Below, one piece after another: positions 7,820 through 51,385 of a DNA stretch of 53,009 nucleotides. How positions within the stretch are numbered: the stretch's first letter is position 1; each line of letters begins with the position of its first letter. Made by a program: the position numbers and the translations under genes. Below the pieces are notes generated by a model. That model saw only the letters and a list, made by a program, of their open reading frames with translations, ran no database searches and was not told where the DNA came from. This DNA comes from an uncultured Ectothiorhodospiraceae bacterium (GTDB taxonomy: Bacteria > Pseudomonadota > Gammaproteobacteria > S012-40), in NCBI GenBank assembly GCA_945787125.1, contig CALZHW010000006.1, positions 1 to 53,009 of the forward strand, read 5' to 3'.

Positions 7820-7857
7820 TCATTAACTCTCAATACATCGACACCATCGCCACGCTA

Positions 7858-8016
7858 GGAGCCTGTCCGAGAATGGGAGCCGTCGCGAGGGAAAGTTATT
7901 TTAGAGCAGTTTTTTCGTTCATTTGAGGCGAATAGTTATTCTATTCAACGAAAATGAACGGAAAAAATGGTCAAAATAACAATCCGCAGTAGGTTCTCCA
8001 TTCTCGGACAGGCTCC
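7858..8016. mobile_element. 159-bp MITE, GGAGCCTGTCCGAGAATGG family (IS5-like ends)
   Basis: Perfect 19-bp TIRs, both ends in a CTAG context, central AATAG-n5-CTATT. A second copy lies inverted at 30159-30365. Confidence 0.88.
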
Positions 8017-8124
8017 TAGCAGCTATGGAACGCAATTTATTGATGTTTTTAGTTCCGCCCAACGCTTAAATCAAGTAAAATCGCGCAATTAATGCGCCCC
8101 AAACTATCACGAAAACAGGTAAAT

Positions 8125-17967: not shown

Positions 17968-18154
17968 TCACAATTGGCGTTCAAATTATTTCCCGTAATC
18001 AGCGCTCGTAGTGGCAAAGCCTTATAGAGAGTGTTGGCAGCATGGATGCTGCCGTCAAGCCTACATGGACATATTTACAGCGTCTCTCGCTAAGGCTTTG
18101 CCGCTACGAGTGCTGGAAGGTGGCACTATTGCAACTTTGAACGCCGGTTGTGAG
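17967..18154. mobile_element. 188-bp MITE, CTCACAATCGGAGTTCAAA family
   Basis: TIRs TTCACAATTGGCGTTCAAA / TTTGAACGCCGGTTGTGAG; internal long stem and a GGCAGCATGGATGCTGCC hairpin. Same-length inverted copy at 51198-51385. Confidence 0.85.
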
Positions 18155-26706: not shown

Positions 26707-26939
26707 GGAGCCTGTCCGACGAGTCCATGAATGGATGAAGGTACGAGCCCATGGATGGGCGAAGGTAGAACAATGCACTAGGGCAGGAGCCCGTAGATAG
26801 AATAACGCAGGAGCAGTTATCGAGAAGCAATTGTTGACGAGCCCATAAATGGATGAAGACTTGACGGCAGCATCCCTGCTGCCGACATTCTCTATAAGGC
26901 CTTGCCACTACGAGTGCTGATTTGGGCACCGATTGTGAA
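26707..26939 (+). mobile_element. Pile-up of nested mini-elements and MITE fragments
   Basis: GGAGCCTGTCCGA TIR, partial unit (26720-26743), 48-nt unit split by a 46-nt unit (26778-26823), partial unit (26838-26858), then a CTCACAATC-family fragment. Confidence 0.82.
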
Positions 26940-26967
26940 TTGTTATCCAGCTTTAATCAAAACCTCA

Positions 26968-27333
26968 TTATTGATCGAGTTTTTGTTCCCAAAAATTTGC
27001 CTTTGATTCATTTTTTTGCAAACCATACCAACCCTCGCGGTAGCCAACAACCAGATACTCCTGAGCTTGAGGGTGACCACTTATCGCCGCTTTGTGATAC
27101 CACTTAACCGCTTCTTTTTCATTGAATTGACCTGCAGAATCGCTGTGATACGCCATTGCTAAATTGAATTGTGCCTCGGCATTGCCTTGTTCAGCGAGAT
27201 TTTGCCAAATTGCTGCGGCTTTTTTGAAGTCTGCACTATTTGCAGCTTCATAACCTTCCTCAAAGTCAGCGGCCAACGCTGCCGATGAAAATACTGCAAA
27301 GCCCACCGCAATCATTAATTTTTTTACATGCAT
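26968..27333 (-). CDS. Secreted Sel1-like repeat protein
   Basis: Signal peptide; LAEQGNAEAQFNLA, EAVKWYHKAA.SGH..AQ. Confidence 0.85.
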   Translation of the reverse strand: MHVKKLMIAVGFAVFSSAALAADFEEGYEAANSADFKKAAAIWQNLAEQGNAEAQFNLAMAYHSDSAGQFNEKEAVKWYHKAAISGHPQAQEYLVVGYREGWYGLQKNESKANFWEQKLDQ

Positions 27334-27468
27334 ACGATTCTCCATCAAAATAAACACACAAACTTACTGTGTATTAAGATCGGATAGCGAGAAAATATAA
27401 TGAGTGAATATTCACTCGTTTTGTGTAAACTATTTCGCAAATATCACACACGTTGAATCACACTTACG

Positions 27469-28026
27469 ATGCACATAAACCCAGAAACTGGCCTAATCGA
27501 CGAAGCAGAGTACATTGCTTCACCCAATTGCGATGTACGGCCAACTAATGTAGCAATTAACTTATTGATCATACACAATATTAGCCTACCGCCCGGCAAG
27601 TTCGGCGGACCCTATATCAGCCAGTTGTTCACCAATCAACTCAATCCCGACGAGCACCCTTTCTTTCTTGAAATCAAAGACCTACGTGTTTCATCGCATT
27701 TGCTCATCCAACGCAATGGCGACATCATTCAATACGTTCCACTGGATAAACGCGCTTGGCATGCGGGTATATCCGAGTTTGATGGCAAGCCGCAATGCAA
27801 TGATTATTCAATCGGTATTGAGCTTGAAGGCACGGATGACCTGCCCTATGAAGCAATTCAATACCAGCAACTGGCAGCAGTAACACAATCTATTATGCAA
27901 CGGCACCCTGCCATCTCCCTTGATAAAATTTGTGGTCATTGCCACATCGCCCCAGGACGAAAAACAGACCCCGGTGCCGCCTTTGACTGGGAGCACTATA
28001 AAGCACTGCTTTGTGAGTCTCGCTGA
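27469..28026 (+). CDS. ampD: 1,6-anhydro-N-acetylmuramyl-L-alanine amidase
   Basis: IHNISLPPG, VSSHLLI, RAWHAG, CNDYSIGIELEG, GH.HIAPGRKTDPG. Confidence 0.95.
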   Translation: MHINPETGLIDEAEYIASPNCDVRPTNVAINLLIIHNISLPPGKFGGPYISQLFTNQLNPDEHPFFLEIKDLRVSSHLLIQRNGDIIQYVPLDKRAWHAGISEFDGKPQCNDYSIGIELEGTDDLPYEAIQYQQLAAVTQSIMQRHPAISLDKICGHCHIAPGRKTDPGAAFDWEHYKALLCESR

Positions 28027-28110
28027 AATCGTCAAAATTATGTCGGAAATTCAGCCGAAACACCGGCGATTGATGCAATTAATGCTGCTACAATCTGTGT
28101 GAGTCATTCA

Positions 28111-28339
28111 ACCTAAACTCACCAGTTGAGCGCTTCGAATCACGACTGAGTCTTTGGTATTATTGAATTATCGTGCTTTTCCCGCCTTCAACCAATAAGT
28201 GAATGTGCTACGAGGCGAATTATGCGTTTTTAATCGCCGACTGACGTCGTTGCAATCGCTCGCTATTACGCCTCATAGCGCCTAATTAATCACGATAAAA
28301 GATGCACTCTATACGCCGTCCAATTGATGATTTTTAGGT
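28111..28339. mobile_element. Degenerate ACCTA-family fold-back MITE
   Basis: ACCTAAACTCACCAGTTG / CAATTGATGATTTTTAGGT ends; internal inverted segments TTATCGTG/CACGATAA and GCTACGAGGCG/CGCCTCATAGC. Confidence 0.6.
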
Positions 28340-28423
28340 GCAACGTAGAAATTGGTCTATAATTACGGTGATTCACCTAATCTAATTTTTACAACATAAA
28401 ATCAGGATATCGCTCATTACAAA

Positions 28424-30139
28424 ATGACACAGAAAAACACAAACAAGCTGAATTGGTTGCGCAATCACACACTCGCGCTCATAGCCATAAGCACTTTAGC
28501 AGGCTGCGCGACGCTAAAACAGCCTGGTGAAATTTCGACTGAAGAACTCCGGTTAAGTGAGTATGCAACTATCGCTAGCATAGATGCCGTTACCAAACTT
28601 GAAAAAAATTATCATTCCTCCCGCAAATCAGAAATCGATGTTTTTGCTCCAACACATTACAGCACCGCCGGAGCAGCACTTGCGGAAGCCAAAGCCCTCA
28701 TTAATGAAAAAAAAGGCTCACGTGAGCAAATTGTTCACAAAGTGGCTGTGGGCGAAGCAGTGCTGCGCAATGCTGATCGCGTCATACGCCAGATAAAAGA
28801 AACACTGTCTGACGAAATAGAATTAAAAACCAAGCTGGAATCATTAAACACCGCAGATGTTTATGAAAACGAATATGGAAGCCTGTTAGATCGGCTTAAT
28901 CTAATTATTAAAAACATCGAAACAGGCAAAGCACCGACCAGCAGTAACCGTGAAAAACTTATCCAGGACATGCAACAGCTAGAATCCAAAACACGACGTT
29001 ACAACGCGATGCATGAGCCTGAAGAAATTCTCAAACGCGTTAAATATCGTGGCGGCGAAACATTAGCACCGCTGACATTCCAGGAAACGATTAACGTATT
29101 TGCTCGCGCAGAAGAATTTATCCAACAAAATCCAACTTATGACATTGGCATCGAACAAATAGGTAAAGAAGCATTATTTGCCGCCAAACGCGCGCTGCAC
29201 ATTACAGAGCAAGTTGCTGCGCTGAGCCAAAAAATCGATTTAGCACCAGAACAAATCATCCTGGATGAAGAATACCGGCTGCATCGGGTTGCGCGCGAGT
29301 TAAGCGACAAGGATTTCCGCGACAATCCGCTGGAAGCACAATCAGAGTTATTGACAAAAGCGGCCATTGCACACGCCAACGAGTTGCGGAAAAGAGAAGA
29401 GCTCGTTCTTGCATTAAAAGAAACACTCATTGAAGTACGGGACCCAGCCGCTCAATTCAGTTCGCTTAATGAAACCACGAATCAATTAAAAGCAGAAAAA
29501 AACGAATGGCTTGCCAAAGAAGCGCTTTACAAAGCTAAAGTCAGCGAGCTTGAAGAAAAGCTGCAACAAGCCATTGCGCAACTTGATCAAACTCAACAAA
29601 CCGTGCTCGCGATTCAAAACCAAAATTCCCCAGATAACCCAGCTAATCAATCAGCAGCAACGAATGAGCTGGACAAACAAGAATCAGTAGCGCAAAAAAC
29701 TATCGAGCTAGGCAATAGCGTCACACCATTACAACAAGACAAAAGCACATTAACTACCACCGCCACCCAGAACCAGCCTGCCAAATCAAAACTACCGGCG
29801 ACAATTGCCACTGATAAAACAAGGCTAGAAAATGCAGCGAATTTATCTACCGACAACGATCGAGTTGACATAGCGAATGAAACGGAAAGTCTTCAAAATG
29901 CGCCTCTGTCAACCAAAGATGATACTGAAAAAGCAGATATCACAGGGTTAGAAAAAGCCATAACTCAAGCGGTAAAAAACAAGAATGAAGAAGCGCTAGC
30001 AACTACGAAGCGACTAATCAAGCAATTGCAAGCCGACAGTAACACTGCAACAACAGATAACAATACAAGCACAACTAAAAATACTGAAACTAAACCAAGC
30101 AACTCACAAAATTCTATTTTCGTAGATGCAGGTGAGTAG
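28424..30139 (+). CDS. Hypothetical helical lipoprotein with a coiled-coil and low-complexity C-terminus
   Basis: Lipobox LAGC; 571-aa ORF; T/N/Q-rich tail. Confidence 0.75.
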   Translation: MTQKNTNKLNWLRNHTLALIAISTLAGCATLKQPGEISTEELRLSEYATIASIDAVTKLEKNYHSSRKSEIDVFAPTHYSTAGAALAEAKALINEKKGSREQIVHKVAVGEAVLRNADRVIRQIKETLSDEIELKTKLESLNTADVYENEYGSLLDRLNLIIKNIETGKAPTSSNREKLIQDMQQLESKTRRYNAMHEPEEILKRVKYRGGETLAPLTFQETINVFARAEEFIQQNPTYDIGIEQIGKEALFAAKRALHITEQVAALSQKIDLAPEQIILDEEYRLHRVARELSDKDFRDNPLEAQSELLTKAAIAHANELRKREELVLALKETLIEVRDPAAQFSSLNETTNQLKAEKNEWLAKEALYKAKVSELEEKLQQAIAQLDQTQQTVLAIQNQNSPDNPANQSAATNELDKQESVAQKTIELGNSVTPLQQDKSTLTTTATQNQPAKSKLPATIATDKTRLENAANLSTDNDRVDIANETESLQNAPLSTKDDTEKADITGLEKAITQAVKNKNEEALATTKRLIKQLQADSNTATTDNNTSTTKNTETKPSNSQNSIFVDAGE

Positions 30140-30158
30140 TCAGCCTACCTAAAGCCTA

Positions 30159-30365
30159 GGAGCCTGTCCGAGAATGGAGAGCCTGCTCGGCAACTGCTCC
30201 TGCGTTGCTCTACCTCCTGCATCCATGCAGTCGTGCGGATTGTTATTTTTGACCATTCCTTCCGTTCATTTTCGTTAAATAGAATGACTATTCGCCTCAA
30301 ATGAACGAAAAAACTGCTCTAAAATAACTTTCCCTCACGACGACTCCCATTCTCGGACAGGCTCC
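30159..30365. mobile_element. GGAGCCTGTCCGAGAATGG MITE (inverted copy of 7858-8016) carrying a 47-nt insertion
   Basis: Same TIRs and CTAG flanks; aligns to the reverse complement of 7858-8016 except for the insert at 30187-30233. Confidence 0.9.
30187..30233 (-). mobile_element. 47-nt double-hairpin mini-element
   Basis: CGACTGCATGGATGCAGGAGGTAGAGCAACGCAGGAGCAGTTGCCGA; absent from the empty copy at about 7988. Confidence 0.9.
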
Positions 30366-30449
30366 TAGCGTAAAAATAGTATACAATTATGGGCTTCCGA
30401 TAGGCAATATAACAAAGCGAATAGTGGATTATGAGGTTACCCTAAACAC

Positions 30450-31373
30450 ATGTCTGCTAAAAAACATAAGGCAAAAATCGGTATCGCTTTAGGCAGCGGC
30501 TCTGCTCGCGGCTGGGCGCACATTGGTATCATCAAGGCATTGGAAGCCAATGGCATCAAACCAGAAATAATCTGCGGCACATCAATTGGGGCGTTAGTTG
30601 GCAGCATGTATGCCACCAATGAGCTTGAGTTTCTTGAAAAATGGCTATTAAAACTCGATAAGCGAAAAATTGTCAAATACACAGATATAAGCTTATTAGC
30701 TGCTGGTGGTTTTGTTGAAGGCAATTCACTCATGAATTTTTTCAAAAAACAAATTGGCGATCATAATATTGAAGATCTCGACAAACAATTCGCCTGTGTT
30801 GCAACCGACTTGGAATCCGGAACGGAAAAATGGATTCAGCATGGTTCTATTCTCGATGCAGTCCGTGCTTCTATTGCTGTACCTGGCTTGTTTACACCGG
30901 TAAAATACCACAACCACTGGCTGGTAGACGGTGCCTTAGTAAACCCTGTACCTATCTCCGTATGCCGCGCACTTGGTGCGGAAAAAGTTATCGCTGTAAA
31001 TCTACACGTTGAAGCACTAGGCAAACCACTTAAACGCCCGCTGCCGAATCAAGACTCATTATTTAGCTCGCTCATTGAACGCACTATGCTTACAAAATTC
31101 ACCAATCAAGTGAAAGGCTCATTTCCAGATTTGTTTAAAGAAAAACAAATAGCACCCGGCATTTTCGATGTATTAACTAATTCAATCAACATTATGCAGG
31201 ATCGAATAACACGAAGCCGAATGGCCGGGGATCCGGCAGATGTTTTGCTCTTACCAAAGCTTGGACATATTGGGCTTATGGAATTTGATCGCGCAGAAGA
31301 AGCCATCCAAGCCGGCGAAGAAGTTGTCACACTTCATATGCCTTACATTAAAAGCATGCTTAACCTGGATTAG
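30450..31373 (+). CDS. rssA: Patatin-like phospholipase RssA
   Basis: LGSGSARGWAHIG, GTSIG, DGAL, MQDRITRSRMAGDP. Confidence 0.9.
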   Translation: MSAKKHKAKIGIALGSGSARGWAHIGIIKALEANGIKPEIICGTSIGALVGSMYATNELEFLEKWLLKLDKRKIVKYTDISLLAAGGFVEGNSLMNFFKKQIGDHNIEDLDKQFACVATDLESGTEKWIQHGSILDAVRASIAVPGLFTPVKYHNHWLVDGALVNPVPISVCRALGAEKVIAVNLHVEALGKPLKRPLPNQDSLFSSLIERTMLTKFTNQVKGSFPDLFKEKQIAPGIFDVLTNSINIMQDRITRSRMAGDPADVLLLPKLGHIGLMEFDRAEEAIQAGEEVVTLHMPYIKSMLNLD

Positions 31374-31376
31374 ACA

Positions 31377-32048
31377 TTGAATATTTCTGCCCTACAGCCA
31401 ACCAATATCAAAACAAGCAATGGCATCACCGCAGTACACTTTTCATTCAACGGGCCAGCCGGCAAGATTGAAGCGCTACTCACTGCGCCTGAAACAAATA
31501 ATGATTTCAACGCTATCAGTGTCATCTGTCACCCTCACCCATTACATGGCGGCACGCTTACCAACAAAGTCGTCCATATAGCAGCGAAAGCCATGAATGA
31601 TTTAGGCGTACCTGCGTTGCGATTTAATTTTCGGGGTGTTGGGCAAAGTCAGGGGGAGCACGATAATGCCGTCGGTGAGCGTGAAGATTTACTCGCCGCT
31701 ATTGAGCAAATACAGCAGCTCTACCCTCGGCGAGAGTTATGGTTGGTAGGATTTTCATTTGGCGCCTATATCGCTTTAGCAACTGCACATCAAAGCAAGG
31801 CAAAAAAACTGATAACCATTGCACCGGCTATTCATCTTTATGATTTCAACCAAATCGTTTTACCGAACAATGACTGGCTTTTAATTCAAGGTGATGCTGA
31901 TGAGATTGTTCCCGCGAAAGAAGCCATCCTATGGGCCGAGCAACTAGAACACCCACCCACTATTGCTGTGCTGCATGATGCAGGGCACTTTTTTCACGGC
32001 CGCCTAAATGAATTACGTGACATCATTGTAAAACACATAAACCCTTGA
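31377..32048 (+). CDS. Alpha/beta fold hydrolase
   Basis: CHPHPLHGGT, RFNFRGVG, GFSFG, QGDADE, AGHFFHG. Confidence 0.9.
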   Translation: MNISALQPTNIKTSNGITAVHFSFNGPAGKIEALLTAPETNNDFNAISVICHPHPLHGGTLTNKVVHIAAKAMNDLGVPALRFNFRGVGQSQGEHDNAVGEREDLLAAIEQIQQLYPRRELWLVGFSFGAYIALATAHQSKAKKLITIAPAIHLYDFNQIVLPNNDWLLIQGDADEIVPAKEAILWAEQLEHPPTIAVLHDAGHFFHGRLNELRDIIVKHINP

Positions 32049-32065
32049 AAATTCGAACAACAGCC

Positions 32066-32410
32066 ATGACTAAAAAACTAAATATATGTAACATCAGAGA
32101 TATACCGGAAAACACCTGCAAAGGGTTCGCACTAGAAAAGAACAATACCGAACAAACCATTTTCATTATCAACAAAGAACATCAATTTTATGCTTATAAA
32201 AATTTCTGCCCGCATACTGGCGCCCCGCTGAACTGGCAGGATGACGTCTATATGGATTTAGATAACAACCATATCCAATGTAGCGTGCATGGCGCTTTAT
32301 TCGAAGCGAAATCTGGCCGGTGCATTTGGGGCCCCTGTGTCAATCAATCGCTACTCTCAGTGACCATTGAAATTAACAACGGAAAAATTTCAATCACCCA
32401 GCCTGATTGA
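32066..32410 (+). CDS. Rieske 2Fe-2S ferredoxin
   Basis: CPHTG and CSVHGALF ligand boxes. Confidence 0.9.
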   Translation: MTKKLNICNIRDIPENTCKGFALEKNNTEQTIFIINKEHQFYAYKNFCPHTGAPLNWQDDVYMDLDNNHIQCSVHGALFEAKSGRCIWGPCVNQSLLSVTIEINNGKISITQPD

Positions 32411-32553
32411 CGAAGAAATATGCAATCAATTACCCGCTTGCCTTAATTCATAAAACAAAGTAATAATGTTTCAATCAAACAAATGAATATAGGCTCAAAA
32501 CCTGCCTCCATTAATTTAAATCGCATTTATTCACACACCACAGGAAAGTTGTA

Positions 32554-33180
32554 ATGAGTAATCTGTTCGTAAACCCATCGGGGGATCTGCAATTAAATCG
32601 TAACCGCTACTGCTCAACCTTAGTATTATGCGGCATTTTGTTAGGCGCGTCTTTTGCCATCTCCGCCAAAGATAAAAATGCCTATGAAGGACAGTTTTGG
32701 AGCACTGGTAAACATTTCCAGATTTCTGGTGAGACGGTAGCTATAGCGGAAGATGGAATCCATGACCCAACAAATATTACAGCGTTATTTGGCTTGCAGC
32801 CACCTGAAGAAGCAATGCGAAACTTCCCTCGCGACTCCGCCGGGCTGATAGACTGGGTACAAACTCTGGACAAAGGACACATCGCACCCCGCTCTGATTT
32901 ACACGGTGTGGGTGAGAATCTGCAGCCAATTGAGTTAGACATTATTTTCACCGCAATAAGCGCAATGAATCCCGTTTTATTCCAACATAAACAACACACT
33001 GCCTGGTTAGCCTGTGAAAATTGCCACCCAGCGATTTTTGTGAAGAAAAAGGGCGCCAATAAATTTACAATGGCTGATATATTGAATGGTAAATACTGCG
33101 GAGTTTGTCATGGTAAAGTTGCCTTCGCTCCCACAAAAAACTGTATTCGCTGTCATTCTGTCAACAAGAAAAAGAATTGA
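32554..33180 (+). CDS. Periplasmic c(7)-type triheme cytochrome
   Basis: Signal peptide; F.HKQH; CENCH, CGVCHGKVAF, CIRCH. Confidence 0.87.
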   Translation: MSNLFVNPSGDLQLNRNRYCSTLVLCGILLGASFAISAKDKNAYEGQFWSTGKHFQISGETVAIAEDGIHDPTNITALFGLQPPEEAMRNFPRDSAGLIDWVQTLDKGHIAPRSDLHGVGENLQPIELDIIFTAISAMNPVLFQHKQHTAWLACENCHPAIFVKKKGANKFTMADILNGKYCGVCHGKVAFAPTKNCIRCHSVNKKKN

Positions 33181-33262
33181 TTAGGAACGTGAATGAAATA
33201 ACTTGGATATCTGACGCTCATATTTAGTCTGTATTGGCAGGTTCTAATTGAACAAAAGTGCA

Positions 33263-33309
33263 TTAGGGCAGGACGCCCGTAAGTAGAATAACGCAGGAGC
33301 AGTTATCGA
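33263..33309 (+). mobile_element. 47-nt double-hairpin mini-element
   Basis: TTAGGGCAGGACGCCCGTAAGTAGAATAACGCAGGAGCAGTTATCGA inserted at GTGCA^GGAAT. Confidence 0.85.
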
Positions 33310-33372
33310 GGAATAGTCGTTCTATTTCGAGCTTTTGTGATTGCAGAACGTGCCAAGACGGGCTGAAGATGA

Positions 33373-33419
33373 CGACTGCATGGATGCAGGAGGTAGAGCG
33401 ACTCAGGAGATAAAGCCGA
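33373..33419 (+). mobile_element. 47-nt double-hairpin mini-element
   Basis: CGACTGCATGGATGCAGGAGGTAGAGCGACTCAGGAGATAAAGCCGA inserted at GATGA^GATGT. Confidence 0.85.
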
Positions 33420-33575
33420 GATGTAAAGATGGGTAAGTTATTTCATACACGTTCCTTAGCACAGCAATGCTCTCACCACTCATCAACATTTTATATACCG
33501 CTTAACAAAGAATGTTTGCACCCAGGATTCAAATGATTTAGCTTTACAATCTAATTATCTAATGAGTGCGCTTCA

Positions 33576-34484
33576 TTGCTCAATCAAATAAATCAAAAAG
33601 CCATCACCCTGCTCCGTCAACTTGATGACAGCAGGTTATCAACACGACTGCTTAGGGCCTTATATTGTACAATTTTAGAAATAAATGATAGCTATCTCAC
33701 TCTGCACGCTAAAAGTCTGGTGTATAGCACTTTGGTTAGTCTTGTACCCATTCTTGCTATTGGCTTTTCGCTGCTAAAATACTTTGGCGTACACAATCAG
33801 ATTTCTCCCATGCTGCATAACCTACTAGAGCCACTGGGTGATAAAGGCGATGAGATTGCAAGCTATATTATTAACCTGATTGACAACGTTGATGTCAACT
33901 TACTAGGAATTGTTGGAACATTAATACTGCTATACACTGTTATAAACACACTGACCCAAATTGAAGAAACACTAAATCATATTTGGAAGGTTAATAAACC
34001 CCGCTTTTGGTTAAAGAGGGTTTTTTATTATCTGGGAGTCATTATGCTATCCCCTGCTCTTGTAGTTGCTGGCTTGCTACTCACTGCCAGCCTAATGAAC
34101 AGCAATTTTGTTCAGACCATTCTCGAATTAGAGCCCTTTGGCACCTTGTATCTAACCCTCGTTTCTTTATTGCCATACTTTACAGTGATAATCGGCTTCA
34201 CGTTGGTTTATCTCTTTTTACCGAATACCAAAGTCAAAATTCTCACCGCCTTTGTCGGTGGTTTATCAGCGGGCTTGGCATGGAAACTTGTTGGTTATTT
34301 ATTTGCAGTATTTTTAAAAAACTCCTCCAATTATGATTTAATTTACTCTGGATTTGCAGCATTAATCATCTTTTTACTCTGGCTTTATATTAGCTGGTTG
34401 ATTTTTTTACTGGGCGGTCTGTTTGCTTATTCATTTCAAAACAGCGAAGTGTTCAATCAACCGGACAAAGAAAACGTAAAATAA
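33576..34484 (+). CDS. YihY / BrkB family membrane protein
   Basis: AKSLVYSTLVSLVP, IEETLNHIW, LPNTKV, IYSGFAAL..FLLWLYISW. Confidence 0.9.
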   Translation: MLNQINQKAITLLRQLDDSRLSTRLLRALYCTILEINDSYLTLHAKSLVYSTLVSLVPILAIGFSLLKYFGVHNQISPMLHNLLEPLGDKGDEIASYIINLIDNVDVNLLGIVGTLILLYTVINTLTQIEETLNHIWKVNKPRFWLKRVFYYLGVIMLSPALVVAGLLLTASLMNSNFVQTILELEPFGTLYLTLVSLLPYFTVIIGFTLVYLFLPNTKVKILTAFVGGLSAGLAWKLVGYLFAVFLKNSSNYDLIYSGFAALIIFLLWLYISWLIFLLGGLFAYSFQNSEVFNQPDKENVK

Positions 34485-34487
34485 AGA

Positions 34488-34519
34488 AATCAGAGCCCAT
34501 CAGTTAAATGGCTCTGATT
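34488..34519. terminator. Probable terminator hairpin between convergent genes
   Basis: AATCAGAGCC...GGCTCTGATT. Confidence 0.55.
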
Positions 34520-34539
34520 CCTTAAAAGTTCTATGGCGT

Positions 34540-35067
34540 TTAATTGTCAGAAACGAAGGTTTCGTCTTTGGCTGCTTCAGCATCGTCAGACGATGTTAAT
34601 TCTTTAACTTTTGATTTTAGTTTATCAAAAAAACCTGGTTCGTCGGCTTCTTTAGTGCTCGCTTCTAATTGCGCATCTCCCTCTACTGCAACTTCTGCTT
34701 GCGCTTCGACAGCACTTGCTTCTTCGCTGTCGGCAAGCGCATTTAATTTATCTTTAGCCGGTTCAGCTGTAGTTTCTTTCGCTGTTTCAAGTTGCTGCTC
34801 GGTTTTAGCTTGAGCGTCAGACGCAGTGCTTTCGCCTTGACCAATGATATCAGCGGCTTTATCTTTAGCGTCGTTTAGCAAGTTTTCTGAGCTTGCATCT
34901 TCAACATTAATACCACTTGCCATGGATTTGCCGGACGATATAGTATCGCTAACTTTTTGCACAACTTCCGCTTGATCAACAGCGTGAACAACACTGACAG
35001 CAGGCACCAATAAACTGGCAGCGAACAAAACACTTAATGCGGCAGGATGTTTTTTAATGAGTTTCAT
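34540..35067 (-). CDS. Secreted Ala/Asp/Glu-rich hypothetical protein
   Basis: AAGGA RBS, signal peptide ending VHA, acidic low-complexity body. Confidence 0.7.
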   Translation of the reverse strand: MKLIKKHPAALSVLFAASLLVPAVSVVHAVDQAEVVQKVSDTISSGKSMASGINVEDASSENLLNDAKDKAADIIGQGESTASDAQAKTEQQLETAKETTAEPAKDKLNALADSEEASAVEAQAEVAVEGDAQLEASTKEADEPGFFDKLKSKVKELTSSDDAEAAKDETFVSDN

Positions 35068-35449
35068 AGATATTTCCTTATAGAGTCATTAGTTTGGTAA
35101 AGATAGTTTGCTGAAATCTTGCGAATTTTTAGGCAGGGTATACCATAGAACTCAAACAGAAAAATGTGCATAATCATCGGGGTTAGCGTCCAACACCATC
35201 TACTGACACACATTTTAGAGCCAAGAAATACAGCTGTCTTAGTCTAGGCTCAGTGCGTTACGATAGCTAGCTTTTAATCGTAAAACATTGTCAGGAACGT
35301 GCACCACTACTCTGGAAAACTCAGCTGAGCATGACTTTAGGAGCAATGCCCAGAAAGTTACGCTCAAATATTCACCATTACATCAAGAGAAACAACAAAT
35401 ACCCGGCTACACTTGTTACAATAGCGTATGACTTCACATAAAGCGTAAA

Positions 35450-36307
35450 ATGAAAATACCAAACAGATTGCAGCCGCTAATCGACAATGGACTCATCGAT
35501 AGCATTATTTGTCAGTTAAAAAGTGGGAAAGAAGCCCAAGTTTACATGGTTCGTTGTGGCGAGAATGTGCGCTGCGCCAAGGTCTACAAAGAAGCCAATC
35601 AACGCAGCTTCAAGCAAGCCGTACAATACCAGGAAGGTCGAACATCGCGGAACAGCCGTCGCTCGCGTGCCATGCAGAAACGTACTCGTTATGGACAAAA
35701 AGAAAGCGAACAGGCCTGGCTTTCCGCTGAGGTAGATGCGCTATACAAGCTTGCTGCTGCGGGCGTGCGTGTACCCGAACCCTATGGTTTTGTTGATGGC
35801 GTATTACTCATGGAGCTAATTACCGATGACAATGGCCACGCAGCACCTCGCTTGAGTGATGTCATCTTTAGCGATGAGCAAGCACTGGAATACCATGAGC
35901 GGCTTATTGGTGAAATCGTACGCATGCTCTGTGCCGGACTAGTGCACGGCGATCTTTCTGAGTTCAACGTTTTAGTTGACCAAAACGGCCCTGTGATTAT
36001 CGACCTGCCGCAAGCTGTCAATGCCGCTGGCAACAACAACGCCGCTATGATGCTTGAACGAGACATCAACAACATGCGGGACTATTTCGGTCGTTACGCA
36101 CCTGAGCTACTGAGCACTGCATACAGCAAAGAGATCTGGAGCCATTACGAAAAAGGCAGGCTTAAACCCGACAGCACATTAACTGGTCAATATACAGAAA
36201 GTAGCTTCACGGCCGATGTTGATGGCGTTATGGTAGTCATCAATGACGCTCTGGAAGAAGAACTGGAACGACGCCGTTACGCGCAGGAGCAACTTGAAGA
36301 TAAATAA
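35450..36307 (+). CDS. RIO1-like serine/threonine kinase (PA4780-type)
   Basis: SGKEAQVY, CAKVYK, LVHGDLSEFN, IIDLPQ. Confidence 0.92.
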   Translation: MKIPNRLQPLIDNGLIDSIICQLKSGKEAQVYMVRCGENVRCAKVYKEANQRSFKQAVQYQEGRTSRNSRRSRAMQKRTRYGQKESEQAWLSAEVDALYKLAAAGVRVPEPYGFVDGVLLMELITDDNGHAAPRLSDVIFSDEQALEYHERLIGEIVRMLCAGLVHGDLSEFNVLVDQNGPVIIDLPQAVNAAGNNNAAMMLERDINNMRDYFGRYAPELLSTAYSKEIWSHYEKGRLKPDSTLTGQYTESSFTADVDGVMVVINDALEEELERRRYAQEQLEDK

Positions 36308-36387
36308 CTCGCATTTATCCCAGATGCTCAAATTTATCAGTCCCGCTACGGAAAGCTGGGATAAAGAAACCGGTAAATTAATTTTTT

Positions 36388-37377
36388 ATGCGAAAAAAAA
36401 ATAAAGTGACACACCAGCGCCGGCAAGAAATAGCAAAAAAAGGATTGCTACACCCACGGAATCTTCATCAAGGGCGTTATGATTTAATCGCGCTAAGCAA
36501 AACCTGCCCTGAATTAAAAAAATACTGTAAAGCTAAACCGAACGGAGATATGAGCATAGATTTTAGTCATGCTAATGCCGTGCTTTGCTTAAACAAAGCG
36601 CTGTTGGCGCATTTCTATCACGTCACCCACTGGTGCATTCCCGCAGGCTATCTCTGCCCGCCGATCCCTGGACGAGCTGATTACATACACTATATTGCTG
36701 ATCTTTTAGCAACATCCAACCAAGGTAAAATACCTACAGACAAAAATCTAAAAGTGCTAGACATAGGCACTGGCGCGAATTGTATTTACCCAATTATCGG
36801 CAGCCAAAGTTACGGCTGGCAGTTTATCGCGACGGACATAGATCCTCGATCAATCAAATCAGCCAAGCTGATCGCAGAGTCAAACGGTTGCCTGAGCCAA
36901 TTAATTAAAGTGATACCGCAAAGTGAAAAACAGAAAATCTTCACAGGAATAATCAATGATGAAGACCGATTTGATCTTAGCCTGTGCAACCCACCCTTCA
37001 ACGCATCTTTAGCTGAAGCTCAATTCAACACCCAGCGTAAGCTGCAAAATCTGAACAAAGGCAAGTTAAAAAAAAGCCAGATCAAACGCAATTTTGCTGG
37101 TCAAGAAACGGAGTTATGCTATCCCGGGGGAGAAATCAATTTTTTAACAATCATGGCTAATGAAAGCAAAATTTTTAGCGAACAGGTTTACTGGTTTAGC
37201 AGCCTGGTTTCCAAGAATGAAAATATCCGTCCATTAAAAAAACGACTAATCAAATTGGGCGCCAGGCAGATTGAAGTGATCGAAATGTCTCAAGGACAAA
37301 AGATAAGCCGGCTTATTGCCTGGAGTTTCCTGTCAATTGAGCAGCAGCAGAAGTGGGCGCAAGAACGCTGGAATTGA
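36388..37377 (+). CDS. rlmF: 23S rRNA m6A1618 methyltransferase
   Basis: LHPRN, YLCPPIPGRADYIH, LDIGTGANCIYP, CNPPF, MSQGQKISR. Confidence 0.95.
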   Translation: MRKKNKVTHQRRQEIAKKGLLHPRNLHQGRYDLIALSKTCPELKKYCKAKPNGDMSIDFSHANAVLCLNKALLAHFYHVTHWCIPAGYLCPPIPGRADYIHYIADLLATSNQGKIPTDKNLKVLDIGTGANCIYPIIGSQSYGWQFIATDIDPRSIKSAKLIAESNGCLSQLIKVIPQSEKQKIFTGIINDEDRFDLSLCNPPFNASLAEAQFNTQRKLQNLNKGKLKKSQIKRNFAGQETELCYPGGEINFLTIMANESKIFSEQVYWFSSLVSKNENIRPLKKRLIKLGARQIEVIEMSQGQKISRLIAWSFLSIEQQQKWAQERWN

Positions 37378-39070
37378 TGTACTCTGACCCACCTATCCAG
37401 GAAAACCCCAGATCACTAATGCCATCAGTAAGGCATTTAAACGTCTCAAGACCCGCATCATCCTCACTTCCGTCAAGCAAAAATGGATGAAAGAAAAATG
37501 ATGCCACGCCATCCCTAACCACGCTCGCATAACGGGCGTTCTCTAGCAAGTCATCACAATCTTCACTGTATGAATTATTGACTTTTATGTCTAAATGAAC
37601 TTGGATATTACCAATATTTTCAGGTATTACACGCTGCCCATAATAGTCTTCATGAATAAGATAAGGAAAAAACTGGCCGATGGCAAAATCCTTACCGGCT
37701 TCGGCTGAGTGTAGATCAGGATTATCCGCCGTATAATAAACGACACGTTGATACGTTGCATCAAAACGTTCTGGAAACGTTTTATAAGCTAGTGGCGACG
37801 CCTGGTAATGGGGTGTGGTCCAGGCATAAGGCGCGAAGCCTGAAGCAGTAAGATCCGTCAAGCCCTGATCCAAAACCTCCAATAGTGATTGCTGCGTTTC
37901 ACCATCAATAAGCTGATTGTCAACGACGTTCCAGAATTCATAATCAGTACCCGACAAAGCATTCTCAGGATTTCTAATATTTCCATATTGATGAGTATAA
38001 CCATGCATCACAATGCTCCCACCATTCTCTGTCATGTACTTAAGCGTATTGATCAGCGAGGTAGCCTCAGAAAACATAATATCCTCTGCTTCACCATTAT
38101 TGGACACACCCAAAGGATCAAGATAACGTGGAATTACTGCGATAGAAAACGGAATATTCTTTTCTGCTAAGTGATCAGTAAGGGCAAGCAGGCTCTTAGT
38201 AGGCGTTTTGGCATTGACATCCTCTAACCGTACTAGGGCATGATGACTTTCTTCATGCGCCACATCCAGCATATCATGCAGCATATCGGCAAGGACAAGA
38301 TAACGGTCACGTGGCCCCATGAAACTAAATGGAATATCCCCAACATACCAAAAGTTGTCTGACTGGACAATGTAAGGGTTCTGCTCCGCGGTTTTTTGAT
38401 TCGTTATCGACACCCAAGTGCGCAACTTGGCTGGATTCTCGATGATTATCGTTCCCAAGTCGGGGTCAGCAATACCTTTTCCAGTTTCAGCATCGTACTG
38501 ATAATGTTTTATAAAGTCTTTGGACTTATATGTTATTTTGTCAAAAAAACCCGGCTCCTGTACCTCTGAGCTTGGAGGCACATTAAACCCTTTTACGCTA
38601 CCTGAACGAAAACCATGCTTCGCTACAAACCCCAATTCTGTCTCATCAGTCAATGCCCACAAATTGTACTTAAACCAAACTAAGGTATTTTTACTGGCCA
38701 CTGCATCACGCAGAAATTCACGAGGGATTTTATTGTCAAAGAAAGAACCCAGGTAGAACGTCGCACGATAATCGTTGAGCGATCCAGGTACGTAGCTATC
38801 GACCTCAACAAGCTCTACAGCGAGGTCGAAATGACCAATCAAATTACGTAAAACAATGGCATACGCCAGACCTAATTTCCCAAACTCACTTGAAGGCTCA
38901 GAATCATAAGCGATTAATACTTCTTTTTTTAGACTCGGTGACAGGTCTGGGTCATTAAGCGTCTGTGTTTCTGGTGTTACTGGCATATCAGGTGCGCCAG
39001 ATCTCCCGCAAGCACCGAGCAGCAGTGATATCAATAACGTTATTATTAACAAAGAATTTTTATTTATCAT
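37313..39070 (-). CDS. Lipoprotein with a DUF2334 / polysaccharide-deacetylase-like domain
   Basis: Lipobox LGAC; VRLEDV, MHGYTHQY, TPHY, PENIGN, SFFFHP. Confidence 0.82.
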   Translation of the reverse strand: MINKNSLLIITLLISLLLGACGRSGAPDMPVTPETQTLNDPDLSPSLKKEVLIAYDSEPSSEFGKLGLAYAIVLRNLIGHFDLAVELVEVDSYVPGSLNDYRATFYLGSFFDNKIPREFLRDAVASKNTLVWFKYNLWALTDETELGFVAKHGFRSGSVKGFNVPPSSEVQEPGFFDKITYKSKDFIKHYQYDAETGKGIADPDLGTIIIENPAKLRTWVSITNQKTAEQNPYIVQSDNFWYVGDIPFSFMGPRDRYLVLADMLHDMLDVAHEESHHALVRLEDVNAKTPTKSLLALTDHLAEKNIPFSIAVIPRYLDPLGVSNNGEAEDIMFSEATSLINTLKYMTENGGSIVMHGYTHQYGNIRNPENALSGTDYEFWNVVDNQLIDGETQQSLLEVLDQGLTDLTASGFAPYAWTTPHYQASPLAYKTFPERFDATYQRVVYYTADNPDLHSAEAGKDFAIGQFFPYLIHEDYYGQRVIPENIGNIQVHLDIKVNNSYSEDCDDLLENARYASVVRDGVASFFFHPFLLDGSEDDAGLETFKCLTDGISDLGFSWIGGSEYINSSVLAPTSAAAQLTGNSRQ

Positions 39071-39429
39071 TAGTTAACCCACCAAAATGGAACAACGTCT
39101 GTTGATGAGTAATGGAGCACGGGGGAAATACACTGGATAGTCATTAGGAGAACTCTTTTTAGTTATTTTGTTGCTGTAAGCCGACAATTGTAATCTAAAG
39201 TGCTTCCTAAATACAAAATTTAATGCCCTACATAGTTTTTCGAACACCAAAACTCATGATGGTCATCGCTTTTAAGCTGGAGCCTGTCCGAATAATGATT
39301 GAGGAGATAAATAGGCCTTTTTGTGTTAAAGTAGGCAATGTTAATGAATTCCATCAGTTTTTGAGCTTCTCTGAGATAAGCATAAGATATCAGCAAGCTC
39401 TGAAAAAACAGATTCCTTGCTTGAAATAA

Positions 39430-39536
39430 TACCTAGATCCTGCAAGTGATCGTACCTGCGCAGTGCAAGATATTGATTTGCTATACGGACCAAGAGCCTG
39501 TGCTGAGTAGGAGCGAGCACTTGCAGGATTTAGGTA
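39430..39536. mobile_element. 107-bp fold-back MITE (TACCTAGATCCTGCAAGTG ends)
   Basis: TACCTAGATCCTGCAAGTGATCG / CGAGCACTTGCAGGATTTAGGTA; a solo end recurs at 43311-43330. Confidence 0.8.
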
Positions 39537-39622
39537 ATAGCATTATTTTTTGCCCGCAAGGAAAATGCGATAGAGAGAAGCAAAACACAACGCAGTATAA
39601 TTTGTAATAGGGTCATTAAATT

Positions 39623-39883
39623 ATGACAATGCTTTCAGAAGTAAGTACAGCACTTGTTCAGGATAAATATCAAGTTGAATCGGTCGTAAAAGTCGATACA
39701 CCCAAGGGCATGACGGGTGATGAGTGGTATCACTACACTATCATTTTTGGTAAAAAAACCATTGAAGGCATGAAGCCCGGCTCTTTATTTAGTGTCACCC
39801 AGCACGCCGAAGAATTTGTTGAGAATCTCAATGAGCGCAGCGGTAAATACGGCAGTCAAGCATACCGTTCAAAGAAAAAATAA
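39623..39883 (+). CDS. Hypothetical protein
   Basis: 86-aa ORF with protein-like composition; family not recognised. Confidence 0.65.
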   Translation: MTMLSEVSTALVQDKYQVESVVKVDTPKGMTGDEWYHYTIIFGKKTIEGMKPGSLFSVTQHAEEFVENLNERSGKYGSQAYRSKKK

Positions 39884-39934
39884 CTCACTTGCAGCACTTC
39901 GCCATCAAATTTCACAGTCCAGACACAAGAGGTG

Positions 39935-40029
39935 CGGGCCCATGGATGGGTGAAGGTAGAGCAATGCACTAGGGCAGGACGCCCGTAGGTAGAACAATGC
40001 AGGAGCAATTGCCGAGGAGAAATTGTCGG
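39935..40029 (+). mobile_element. 48-nt mini-element interrupted by a 47-nt mini-element (39969-40015)
   Basis: CGGGCCCATGGATGGGTGAAGGTAGAGCAATGCA[CTAGGGCAGGACGCCCGTAGGTAGAACAATGCAGGAGCAATTGCCGA]GGAGAAATTGTCGG. Confidence 0.85.
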
Positions 40030-40418: not shown

Positions 40419-40440
40419 CCATTCTCGGACAGGCTCCTAG
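40419..40440. mobile_element. Solo right TIR of the GGAGCC MITE family
   Basis: CCATTCTCGGACAGGCTCCTAG, identical to the ends at 8016 and 30365. Confidence 0.8.
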
Positions 40441-40486
40441 AACTATCGGCATACAAATCAAAAGCTTAAAAACTCGCTCCTATGCA

Positions 40487-51197: not shown

Positions 51198-51385
51198 CTC
51201 ACAATCGGAGTTCAAAGCTGTAAAAGTGCAACCTTCCAGCAACCATAGTGGCAAAACCTTACCAAAAGACGCCGTGAATACGTCCCTGTAGGCTTGGCAG
51301 CAGCATCCATGCTGCCAACACTCTCGATAAGGCCTTGCCACTACGGGTGCTGATTACGGAAAAATATTAAAACTCCGATTGTGAG
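51198..51385. mobile_element. 188-bp MITE, inverted copy of 17967-18154
   Basis: CTCACAATCGGAGTT...AACTCCGATTGTGAG TIRs; internal GCAGCATCCATGCTGC and TACGTCCCTGTA hairpins. Confidence 0.88.

Follow-up and report, generated by a model that had tools for sequence, protein, structure and literature searches.

How does a hairpin repeat of only 46–48 nt come to lie inside longer palindromic repeats and, again and again, inside copies of itself? The question is raised by a 53,009-nt stretch of DNA (hereafter the window), which is the entire contig C6 (CALZHW010000006.1) of an uncultured Ectothiorhodospiraceae bacterium (assembly GCA_945787125.1; genome of 4.15 Mb in 321 contigs, 43.5% G+C, 94.6% complete). 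A preliminary description made from the letters of this contig had proposed that a double-hairpin element (the unit), found between positions 26,720 and 40,029, inserts into MITEs (miniature transposable elements with inverted repeats) and into itself. The spread of hairpin repeats that resemble repetitive extragenic palindromic (REP) sequences is a long-standing open question, and REP insertion events are hard to see. Our analysis established that the self-nesting mini-element is real, that it follows exact target rules and that it has a wide host range.

A discrete two-hairpin insertion

The unit is a gene-less DNA module consisting of two hairpins in direct order, laid out as a 3-base head (CGA or YTA), hairpin 1, a linker, hairpin 2 and a CGA tail. 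Hairpin 1 has a 4–5-bp stem and an NGGA loop, and is preceded by CGA or YTA instead of GT[AG]G. Hairpin 2 has a 5-bp stem and the loop GCAGGAGCA, inside which GC/GC can close an AGGA tetraloop; this loop is kept intact in nearly all units across many genomes. The linker contains GGTAGA, with TAGA at its end. GGTAGA stood 5′ of hairpin 2 in most units parsed in this genome, the others carrying GATAGA, AGTAGA, ATTAGA or GGTAGG, and in all units from other genomes, where the pattern used to fetch them required it. In all subtypes NGGA is present in the loop of each hairpin while the stems covary.

Covariation was measured with a pattern that fixed the linker, loop and tail and left three hairpin-2 pairs free. 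All three pairs were Watson-Crick in 31 of the 33 matches in this genome (shuffles: mean 9.2, maximum 17) and in 120 of the 131 matches in other genomes (mean 36.4, maximum 53), and eight different fully complementary stems were found. In a 50-sequence alignment (A1), 91.8% of the cells were paired compared with 81.3% after shuffling, a level reached by none of 500 shuffles, and controls slid along the alignment gave 13–57% pairing; in A1 the fetching pattern itself makes the columns that it fixes invariant, and hairpin 1 of type B, one of the three subfamilies described below, is off by one column, which lowers its pairing figures. Thus, the stem covariation of the unit, first noted in the window, is real. 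When host MITEs were folded as single-stranded DNA, the unit was predicted to form two hairpins branching off the long stem.

The unit is a discrete insertion and not an internal part of one larger repeat: in each of four unrelated hosts, one and the same point is found either with or without the same 47–48 nt. The first host lies in the window. Alignment of positions 30154–30371 (reverse complement) with 7852–8022, two copies of a MITE that we call MITE-1, left a single 47-nt gap with a 1-nt (A) ambiguity, just as the preliminary comparison of filled and empty copies had suggested. The filled copy (30156–30371) carries on the minus strand a 47-nt type A unit, 30187..30233, at CCGCA^GCAGG (where ^ marks the junction), reading CGA CTGCA TGGA TGCAG GAGGTAGA GCAAC GCAGGAGCA GTTGC CGA and matched by the covariance model at E = 1.7e-15; the unoccupied reference is the plus-strand copy 7852..8020 (repeat families I2 and I17), with CCGCA^GTAGG at ~7988. 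Genome-wide, the MITE-1 site CCGCA^G[TC]AGG was filled in 12 copies and empty in 41, in both MITE-1 subfamilies. MITE-1 itself, in which most type A units are housed, folds as a long hairpin of ~170 nt whose inverted ends (CTAGGAGCCTGTCCGAGAATGG) span 22 nt. It has two internal subfamilies, its ends match 169 times in the genome, and the window holds a third site, 40419–40441, that consists of one end only.

The second host is the TwoAYGGAY RNA motif, Rfam RF01731 (Weinberg 2010, PMC2864571), which matched 20 times in genome G330. Three of these matches overlap hits of the unit pattern and are 45–47 nt longer and lower scoring than the rest; in each, a type A unit occupies precisely the second hairpin's loop, at GCGACA^GGACGTCGC. 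The remaining 17 are not lengthened, and the three of them that were read have no unit. The third host is pglX, the BREX-1 methyltransferase gene, in which a 48-nt unit of a variant type (A′) lies in frame (16 codons) on a Moellerella plasmid (NZ_CP093250.1, match at 127705–127741) and on the chromosome of E. coli ZF34. From the pglX gene on the E. coli AREA_497 plasmid precisely this 48-nt stretch is missing, its position being ambiguous by 3 nt (GAC). An identical 37-nt match lies within pglX on a Salmonella plasmid (NZ_CP133280.1) and on the chromosome of E. coli ZF31. Of 53 E. coli pglX matches, 51 fall in the 60–80% identity band; the one that was aligned has no insert, and presumably the 51 have none. 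Since any copy of the unit was present in only 2 of 5426 E. coli genomes, the pglX insertion most likely arose in another host. The fourth host is a Pseudoalteromonas MITE with a single 47-nt gap at TTTA^GAAC. On a Pseudoalteromonas chromid (L135, PLSDB), a ~215-nt repeat occurs at 13 places, not all of them with the unit, which was matched at 5 places in the same record.

These states could be read in the opposite direction, with an immobile unit that belonged to larger repeats from the start and was lost from the empty copies in precise deletions by slippage across hairpins, or with filled copies that spread only via recombination between MITE copies. Hairpins do promote deletion, the junctions share 1–3 bases, and gene conversion could spread filled copies within one MITE family. 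Against this, the same 47-mer sits in otherwise dissimilar hosts (three MITE families, TwoAYGGAY, pglX and the unit itself); the empty state is the large majority and the conserved state in pglX and in TwoAYGGAY of G330; the hairpin-2 loop is intact in nearly all units of many genomes; and each subfamily has its own exact site. We therefore consider an immobile unit highly improbable and a mobile insertion module very probable.

Subfamilies, nesting and target sites

Units were located with a purpose-written structural scanner, which recovered four window units with the ends originally assigned to them, and with a covariance model whose seed comprised 46 distinct foreign and 4 window units. 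A first profile search gave 106 matches at 61 loci genome-wide; the covariance model gave 73 matches at E ≤ 0.01 in the whole genome, a count that the preliminary description had called for, including all five contiguous units of the window, the fifth, decayed one (33373–33419) among them. Between them, the scanner and the model confirmed the coordinates of these five exactly. To resolve nested copies, contiguous units were cut out and the sequence rescanned, repeatedly, which yielded 63 events, or 62 after a chance match on contig C81 was dropped. Sixteen of the 62 units were split by another unit and became visible only once the inner unit had been excised. The split units were restored to the same hairpin-1/hairpin-2 combinations, and hence the same subtypes, as the contiguous ones, which favours whole units as the inserted entity over half-modules duplicated separately.

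Three subfamilies, each with its own targets, were distinguished. Type A (CGA CTGCA TGGA TGCAG GAGGTAGA GCAAC...) is found in larger repeats, at A^G or A^N. Type B (CGA GCCCA/ATCCA TGGA ... GAAGGTAGA ACAAT...) occupies GRTA^GA in the linker, and type C (YTA GGGC AGGAC GCCC GTAGGTAGA ATAAC...) occupies GCA^GGA in the hairpin-2 loop. In this genome, 16 of the 17 type C units lie at CA^GGA, provided either by another unit's hairpin-2 loop or, in another MITE, by the look-alike GTGCA^GGAATAG; 16 of the 23 type B units lie at GRTA^GA, and 4 directly behind the CGA of another unit. The type B preference was seen again in 10 of 12 foreign type B units. The type A target, NA^G, is looser than those of types B and C, and for many foreign type A units the site is the loop (CA^GGA or G^GA) of a hairpin in the flank. 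Throughout this genome A stands on the left side of the junction (61/61 non-edge units), and CA^ is the most frequent target. Nested and adjoining units lie on one strand, with mixed strands at none of 61 loci. The ends, CGA...CGA in direct order, form no terminal inverted repeats, and the junctions show an ambiguity of 1–3 bases at most, with no target duplication beyond these. The proposal of insertion into other palindromic elements and into the unit's own hairpin 2 was supported.

In the window, nesting is displayed at 26720–26860. The plus-strand stretch 26720..26743 is an orphan left half (CGA, hairpin 1 with a degenerate loop, GAAGGTA), and the next unit starts directly after its GGTA, a layout as in nested type B insertions at GRTA^GA. 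That next unit is a split outer type B unit, 26744..26837 (plus strand), which is 46/48 identical to canonical type B after in-silico excision of positions 26778–26823; its hairpin-2 loop is broken after GCA by the inner unit, a 46-nt type C unit on the plus strand (26778..26823; E = 6.7e-9) that reads CTA GGGC AGGA GCCC GTAGATAGA ATAAC GCAGGAGCA GTTAT CGA. A second orphan left half follows on the same strand at 26838..26860, degenerate (CGAGCCCATAAATGGATGAAGAC) and belonging to repeat family D2. The arrangement of an inner type C in an outer type B unit recurs further on, where a slightly decayed outer type B unit (39935..40029, plus strand; 43/48 identical to canonical type B after excision) is broken in its hairpin-2 loop by a type C unit (39969..40015, plus strand; E = 1.7e-10) at GCA^GGAG. 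Both outer units and both partial units had been recognised as such beforehand, and our reconstruction bears them out.

Two further plus-strand units lie between these two places. The type C unit 33263..33309 is inserted in another MITE at AAAAGTGCA^GGAATAG, which mimics the hairpin-2 loop target and stands where the stem GGAATAG/CTATTCC has its foot, and copies of this MITE with the site unoccupied are present on contigs C36, C4 and C39. The unit 33373..33419 (E = 2.3e-7) represents the A′ variant, with a normal hairpin 1 and linker, a hairpin 2 swapped for GCGAC TCAGGAGATAAA GC, and a CGA end; the variant also occurs on contigs C142, C211 and C145, and a 48-nt relative is the unit in frame in pglX. 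The targets in the window, namely GCA^GAAG (26778), GCA^GCAGG (30187), GCA^GGAA (33263), GCA^GGAG (39969) and TGA^GATG (33373), are all A^G and in four of five cases GCA^G, as first described.

The head triplet was considered as the selector of the target and rejected, CGA-headed and CTA-headed units sharing the MITE-1-type site in different genomes. Two other small elements were seen alongside the unit. A fourth two-hairpin subtype of ~51 nt, which the structural scanner misses, its linker being without TAGA, is present in five copies (contigs C147, C17, C233, C29 and C52) at the opposite end of MITE-1 (CGCTA^CGGCTC) and reads CGA CCGCC ATGGAT GGTGG AAGTG CCGGATTT GCAGGAGCA ATAAACCGG TCG. A 23-nt micro-insert (CCAA[AC]AGTAG[GA]CGCTTTTAGGCG) breaks the hairpin-2 stem (A^AC) of one type C and one type A unit; its sites are C191:784-860, C34:8873-8948 and C3:2935, one occurrence being apart from the two units.

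Host range and relation to known repeats

In an even sample of 401 genomes of the class Gammaproteobacteria, queried with the hairpin-2 pattern, 28 genomes contained the pattern and none contained its reversed form (0/401), which excludes chance as the source of the matches. The genome analysed here was the richest of the sample, with 33 pattern matches. The collection of species-representative genomes held at least 125 loci, and the matches listed included Methylobacter, Methylomarinum, Shewanella, Pseudoalteromonas, Paraglaciecola, Lysobacterales, Cellvibrionaceae, Sedimenticolaceae and Acidiferrobacterales. Type A is near-identical across Methylococcales, Alteromonadales, Lysobacterales, Cellvibrionales and others. 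The unit was also found on six viral contigs (6 loci only) and on seven Pseudoalteromonas chromids, and its in-frame copy in a plasmid-borne BREX gene demonstrates that it travels between distant hosts. One viral contig (L138, IMG/VR, 1051 nt) contains three units with a triple GTAG in their linker (GTAGGTAGGTAGA); two of its units lie within a large inverted repeat ~370 nt apart, with no gene between the copies.

The closest parallels are found among REPs, their inverted pairs (REPINs) and the REP-associated tyrosine transposases (RAYTs), together termed REPtrons. Like these repeats as described in PMC3733652, PMC6006769 and PMC8266576, the unit is a short, gene-less, intergenic hairpin repeat of Gammaproteobacteria; its GGTAGA before hairpin 2 corresponds to the GT[AG]G tetranucleotide that REPs carry at, or 1–2 nt from, the 5′ base of their hairpin, it occurs occasionally in frame in genes, and it would presumably be moved in trans by a single-strand HUH enzyme. 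In contrast to a REPIN, which is an inverted pair of REPs, the unit has two different hairpins in direct order; unlike REPtrons, it flanks no cognate RAYT and does not co-occur with RAYTs; and unlike REPs, it is near-identical across orders and nests exactly at defined, subfamily-specific sites.

The IS200/IS605 insertion sequences and their gene-less derivatives, the palindrome-associated transposable elements (PATEs), share with the unit unlike subterminal hairpins on the left and right, the lack of terminal inverted repeats and of target duplication, one-way insertion just 3′ of a short specific sequence, and precise presence/absence states. In IS608, the ends lie 19 and 10 nt from their hairpins, whereas the unit is only 47 nt long with 3 nt between each end and its hairpin. 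Also unlike this family, no full-length element with the ends of the unit was found in our searches, and the ends of this genome's IS200-like gene are different. Among insertion sequences, IS1397 and ISKpn1 (IS3 family) and IS621 and its relatives (IS110 family) have REP hairpins as their targets; all are of kilobase length and encode their own transposase. They resemble the unit as mobile elements aimed at the loop or body of a palindromic repeat; the unit differs in being 47 nt long, gene-less and aimed at itself too. Long-hairpin MITEs of enterobacteria and relatives (ERIC/IRU, YPAL) are non-coding repeats downstream of genes. Such MITEs are hosts of the unit here, while the unit is 3–4 times shorter, is present in a minority of their copies and departs from a classical MITE in having neither terminal inverted repeats nor a target-site duplication.

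The relation to TwoAYGGAY is that of a guest. Both comprise two successive GGA-loop hairpins with an AGGT-type linker and are multicopy with variable copy number, and a unit within a host hairpin loop resembles the "basal stem plus two hairpins" of the motif, an extended form of which is given by Li et al. (bioRxiv 10.64898/2026.09.22.753630). Li et al. describe TwoAYGGAY variants with additional AYGGAY hairpins and an expansion like that of mobile elements. The hairpin-1 loop of the unit, ATGGAT, fits AYGGAY, its hairpin-2 loop GCAGGAGCA does not, and a basal stem is present only where the host supplies one, the unit having none of its own. An Rfam scan of window positions 26–41 kb at E ≤ 1 returned no match, and RF01731 gave only three sub-threshold matches in this genome, all in a different MITE and none at a unit; in G330 the unit is an insert in true TwoAYGGAY copies and thus not a member of the family. 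With neither the REPIN geometry nor the Rfam TwoAYGGAY model fitting it, the unit does not belong to an already characterised REP/REPIN class. We found no description of its motifs, or of nested REPIN-like mini-elements, in the literature, the 15 hits listed for the motifs being primers or unrelated, and the extra-hairpin variants of Li et al. may show the same insert. Two observations concern other GGA-loop hairpins of this genome. A long-hairpin repeat at window positions 17968–18154, 51198–51384 and 26853–26939 has a core with two ATGGAT-loop hairpins, and its copies on contigs C68, C113 and C19 are the genome's only TwoAYGGAY matches (25–32 bits, sub-threshold). The second is the hairpin CAGCA-TGGA-TGCTG, counted 72 times genome-wide.

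An alternative is that the unit is conserved for a role in RNA, its two GGA-loop hairpins forming a double site for a dimer of the Csr/Rsm (CsrA) type; nested arrays would then be multivalent decoys or regulatory tags on neighbouring mRNAs, and mobility only their means of spread, a reading that is compatible with either kind of mover considered below. Hairpin 1 (GCA-UGGA-UGC) is similar to the selected CsrA site, NGGA is kept in all loops while the stems covary, and the sequence conservation across orders suits a conserved binding protein. Two GGA-loop hairpins and an AGGT-containing linker mirror the TwoAYGGAY core in G330, and according to Li et al. (bioRxiv 10.64898/2026.09.22.753630), AYGGAY loops have been put forward as Csr/Rsm sites and additional hairpins may form sponges. 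Other observations speak against such a role: the orientation of the units to co-directional flanking open reading frames (ORFs) was mixed (12 same and 8 opposite at 20 loci, from crude ORF calls); the 6 boxes of the GacA/UvrY type found genome-wide at ≤ 1 mismatch to the consensus included none at a unit locus; a unit also lies in frame within a protein gene (pglX); and the invariant CGA ends and exact junctions are features at the level of DNA. A role in RNA may account for the conservation of the unit, not for its junctions, and we regard it as doubtful.

Mechanism of insertion and the search for a mover

Discrete insertion, site and strand specificity, subfamily-specific targets, a conserved structure and a wide distribution are direct observations, and the question becomes which chemistry could produce them. 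Since the unit carries no gene, it must be moved in trans; this part of the original proposal of a non-autonomous element stood, while the movers it had put forward were not tied to the unit, and no mover was found. Among known chemistries, single-strand transposition by HUH enzymes of the Y1 kind fits best, because it needs no homology, reads hairpins and picks its cut sites via the bases 5′ of the stem. The unlike subterminal hairpins at the two ends, the lack of an inverted repeat and of a duplication, the short specific target and the GTAG that, like that of REPs, adjoins the base of a hairpin (hairpin 2) are all consistent with it. We give an even chance to the explanation as a whole, a gene-less mobile module with HUH single-strand movement, and put forward the HUH mechanism itself tentatively.

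According to this model, the unit would move as folded single-stranded DNA, cut and rejoined in trans by a tyrosine HUH enzyme of the Y1 kind, a relative of the IS200/IS605 TnpA, RAYT or TIRYT proteins. Hairpin 1 would serve as the left end and hairpin 2 as the right end, and the bases 5′ of each stem (CGA and GTAGA) as guides. Integration is one-way, between A and G and with no target duplication, at short single-strand-like sites beside or inside hairpins. Three kinds of target are used: the GGA loop of AYGGAY-type hairpins, including the unit's own hairpin 2 and the second hairpin of TwoAYGGAY; GTA^GA ahead of the unit's own hairpin 2; and the CA^GTAGG site of the long-hairpin MITE. Because the unit carries two such hairpins, each insertion makes new targets, which leads to nested arrays.

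Y1_Tnp domains matched 17 times in this genome, several matches being fragments and most long proteins, and Y1 matches were present in all five of the other genomes richest in units. Several results weigh against a Y1 mover, including the RAYT link of the preliminary description. The flanks of all 17 Y1 genes of this genome were read and contain no unit or unit-like hairpins, and in the IS200-like gene on contig C100 the ends are different and a stop breaks the reading frame. Classic RAYT (E ≤ 1e-8) did not co-occur with the unit (14/27 unit-positive vs 12/25 unit-negative genomes, or 11/24 negatives minus the unpublished genome G039), and the unit-rich genomes G225 and G064 gave no match to the classic RAYT query. 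TIRYT-type Y1 proteins (E ≤ 1e-10) were weakly enriched (18/22 unit-positive vs 14/25 unit-negative genomes, or 13/24 negatives minus G039), and four unit-positive genomes were without one. The unit-negative genomes, G039 among them, were hand-picked from larger, complete ones. Relatives do not count as independent genomes, and the co-occurrence figures are therefore leads only. No longer element with the ends of the unit around a gene was found in this genome. The published guide rule, as we read it and applied with GTAG, predicts neither the right-end cut CGA^ nor the TA^ target. The near-identity of type A across orders, unlike REPs, which track their own RAYT lineage, would call for a very conserved partner or frequent transfer. 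Finally, counts of wobble versus mismatch in the stems, made by eye, showed no strand asymmetry (5 G-T vs 6 A-C).

The guide rule derives from a RAYT shown to cut at CA or CT as chosen by a GTAG guide (PMC8266576). Read onto the unit, it accounts for the CA^ targets yet fails for both the TA^ targets and the CGA^ end, and was dropped as evidence for the model. Left halves of the unit lacking a standard right half within 400 nt, where a longer relative might begin, were found at 3 sites in this genome; two continue into a variant or interrupted right half, and one into non-unit sequence, a decayed remnant near a contig end. A full-length, TnpA-encoding relative with the same ends was likewise not found in this genome, the only one searched for it. 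Several Y1-related genes carry repeats of their own. Two classic RAYT genes (C99:4366-5856 and C298:1514-2137) are each boxed by their own inverted REPs, which are unrelated to the unit and whose head motifs have only 5 and 2 copies in the genome. Several long, TIRYT-like Y1 genes (on C82, C109, C126, C290, C229, C40 and others) are preceded by a small hairpin, such as AAAGGG GTCAGAG CCCTTT, with GGGGTCAG or GGGTCAGG; on C290 an inverted copy lies downstream. A flank of the GGGGTCAG type is described for TIRYT, subclass 2.1, in PMC6006769.

The alternative is that the unit is mobile and its mover something other than a Y1 HUH enzyme, whether an unrecognised hairpin-loop-specific strand transferase or nuclease (perhaps a widely conserved host protein reading GGA-loop hairpins), an IS91-like rolling-circle transposase with two tyrosines (Y2) or, in trans, a recombinase of the IS110 type. 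The lack of a Y1 partner would be explained, a highly conserved reader suits the near-identity of type A across orders, and the targets are GGA-loop hairpins like the unit's own, as if one protein read both donor and target. Helitron and IS91 elements insert without duplication and have a 3′ subterminal hairpin. On contig C132 (positions 1097–1246), two units, to which the covariance model gives lengths of 47 and 49 nt (96 nt together), lie inside an ORF with a CPSCGARRM zinc-ribbon motif, which we read as the mark of an IS91-like transposase; this gene is itself hit by units and interrupted. IS110, the other mover initially named, was not borne out. IS110 elements share a two-base core with the target, whereas the junctions of the unit share at most one base in most events, and PF01548 gave no match in this genome (94.6% complete). 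For the other options no candidate protein emerged, and nothing links a host housekeeping enzyme to insertion. A non-Y1 mover seems rather unlikely.

A wider reading, which we offer as speculative and think improbable as it stands, is that GGA-loop (AYGGAY-type) hairpins are the handles of an undescribed, widely conserved system acting on DNA hairpins, and that the 47-mer, TwoAYGGAY and several MITE cores of this genome form one superfamily of mobile DNA. If so, one enzyme would cut and paste at the loop (A^GGA), recognising the same hairpin in the donor's end and in the target, with the 47-mer as the minimal, self-targeting form, and part of a catalogued structured RNA family would be the footprint of mobile DNA.

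For the study of how hairpin repeats spread, the unit offers many exact before/after sites and three subfamilies with different targets, and it is short enough to be synthesised, so that cutting and joining are directly testable with oligonucleotides. By its insertion in the TwoAYGGAY loop it links mobile DNA to a catalogued RNA motif whose function is not known, and it may account for the "extra AYGGAY hairpins" in some copies. Each insertion adds two potential sites of the CsrA type and, if transcribed, could rewire post-transcriptional control.

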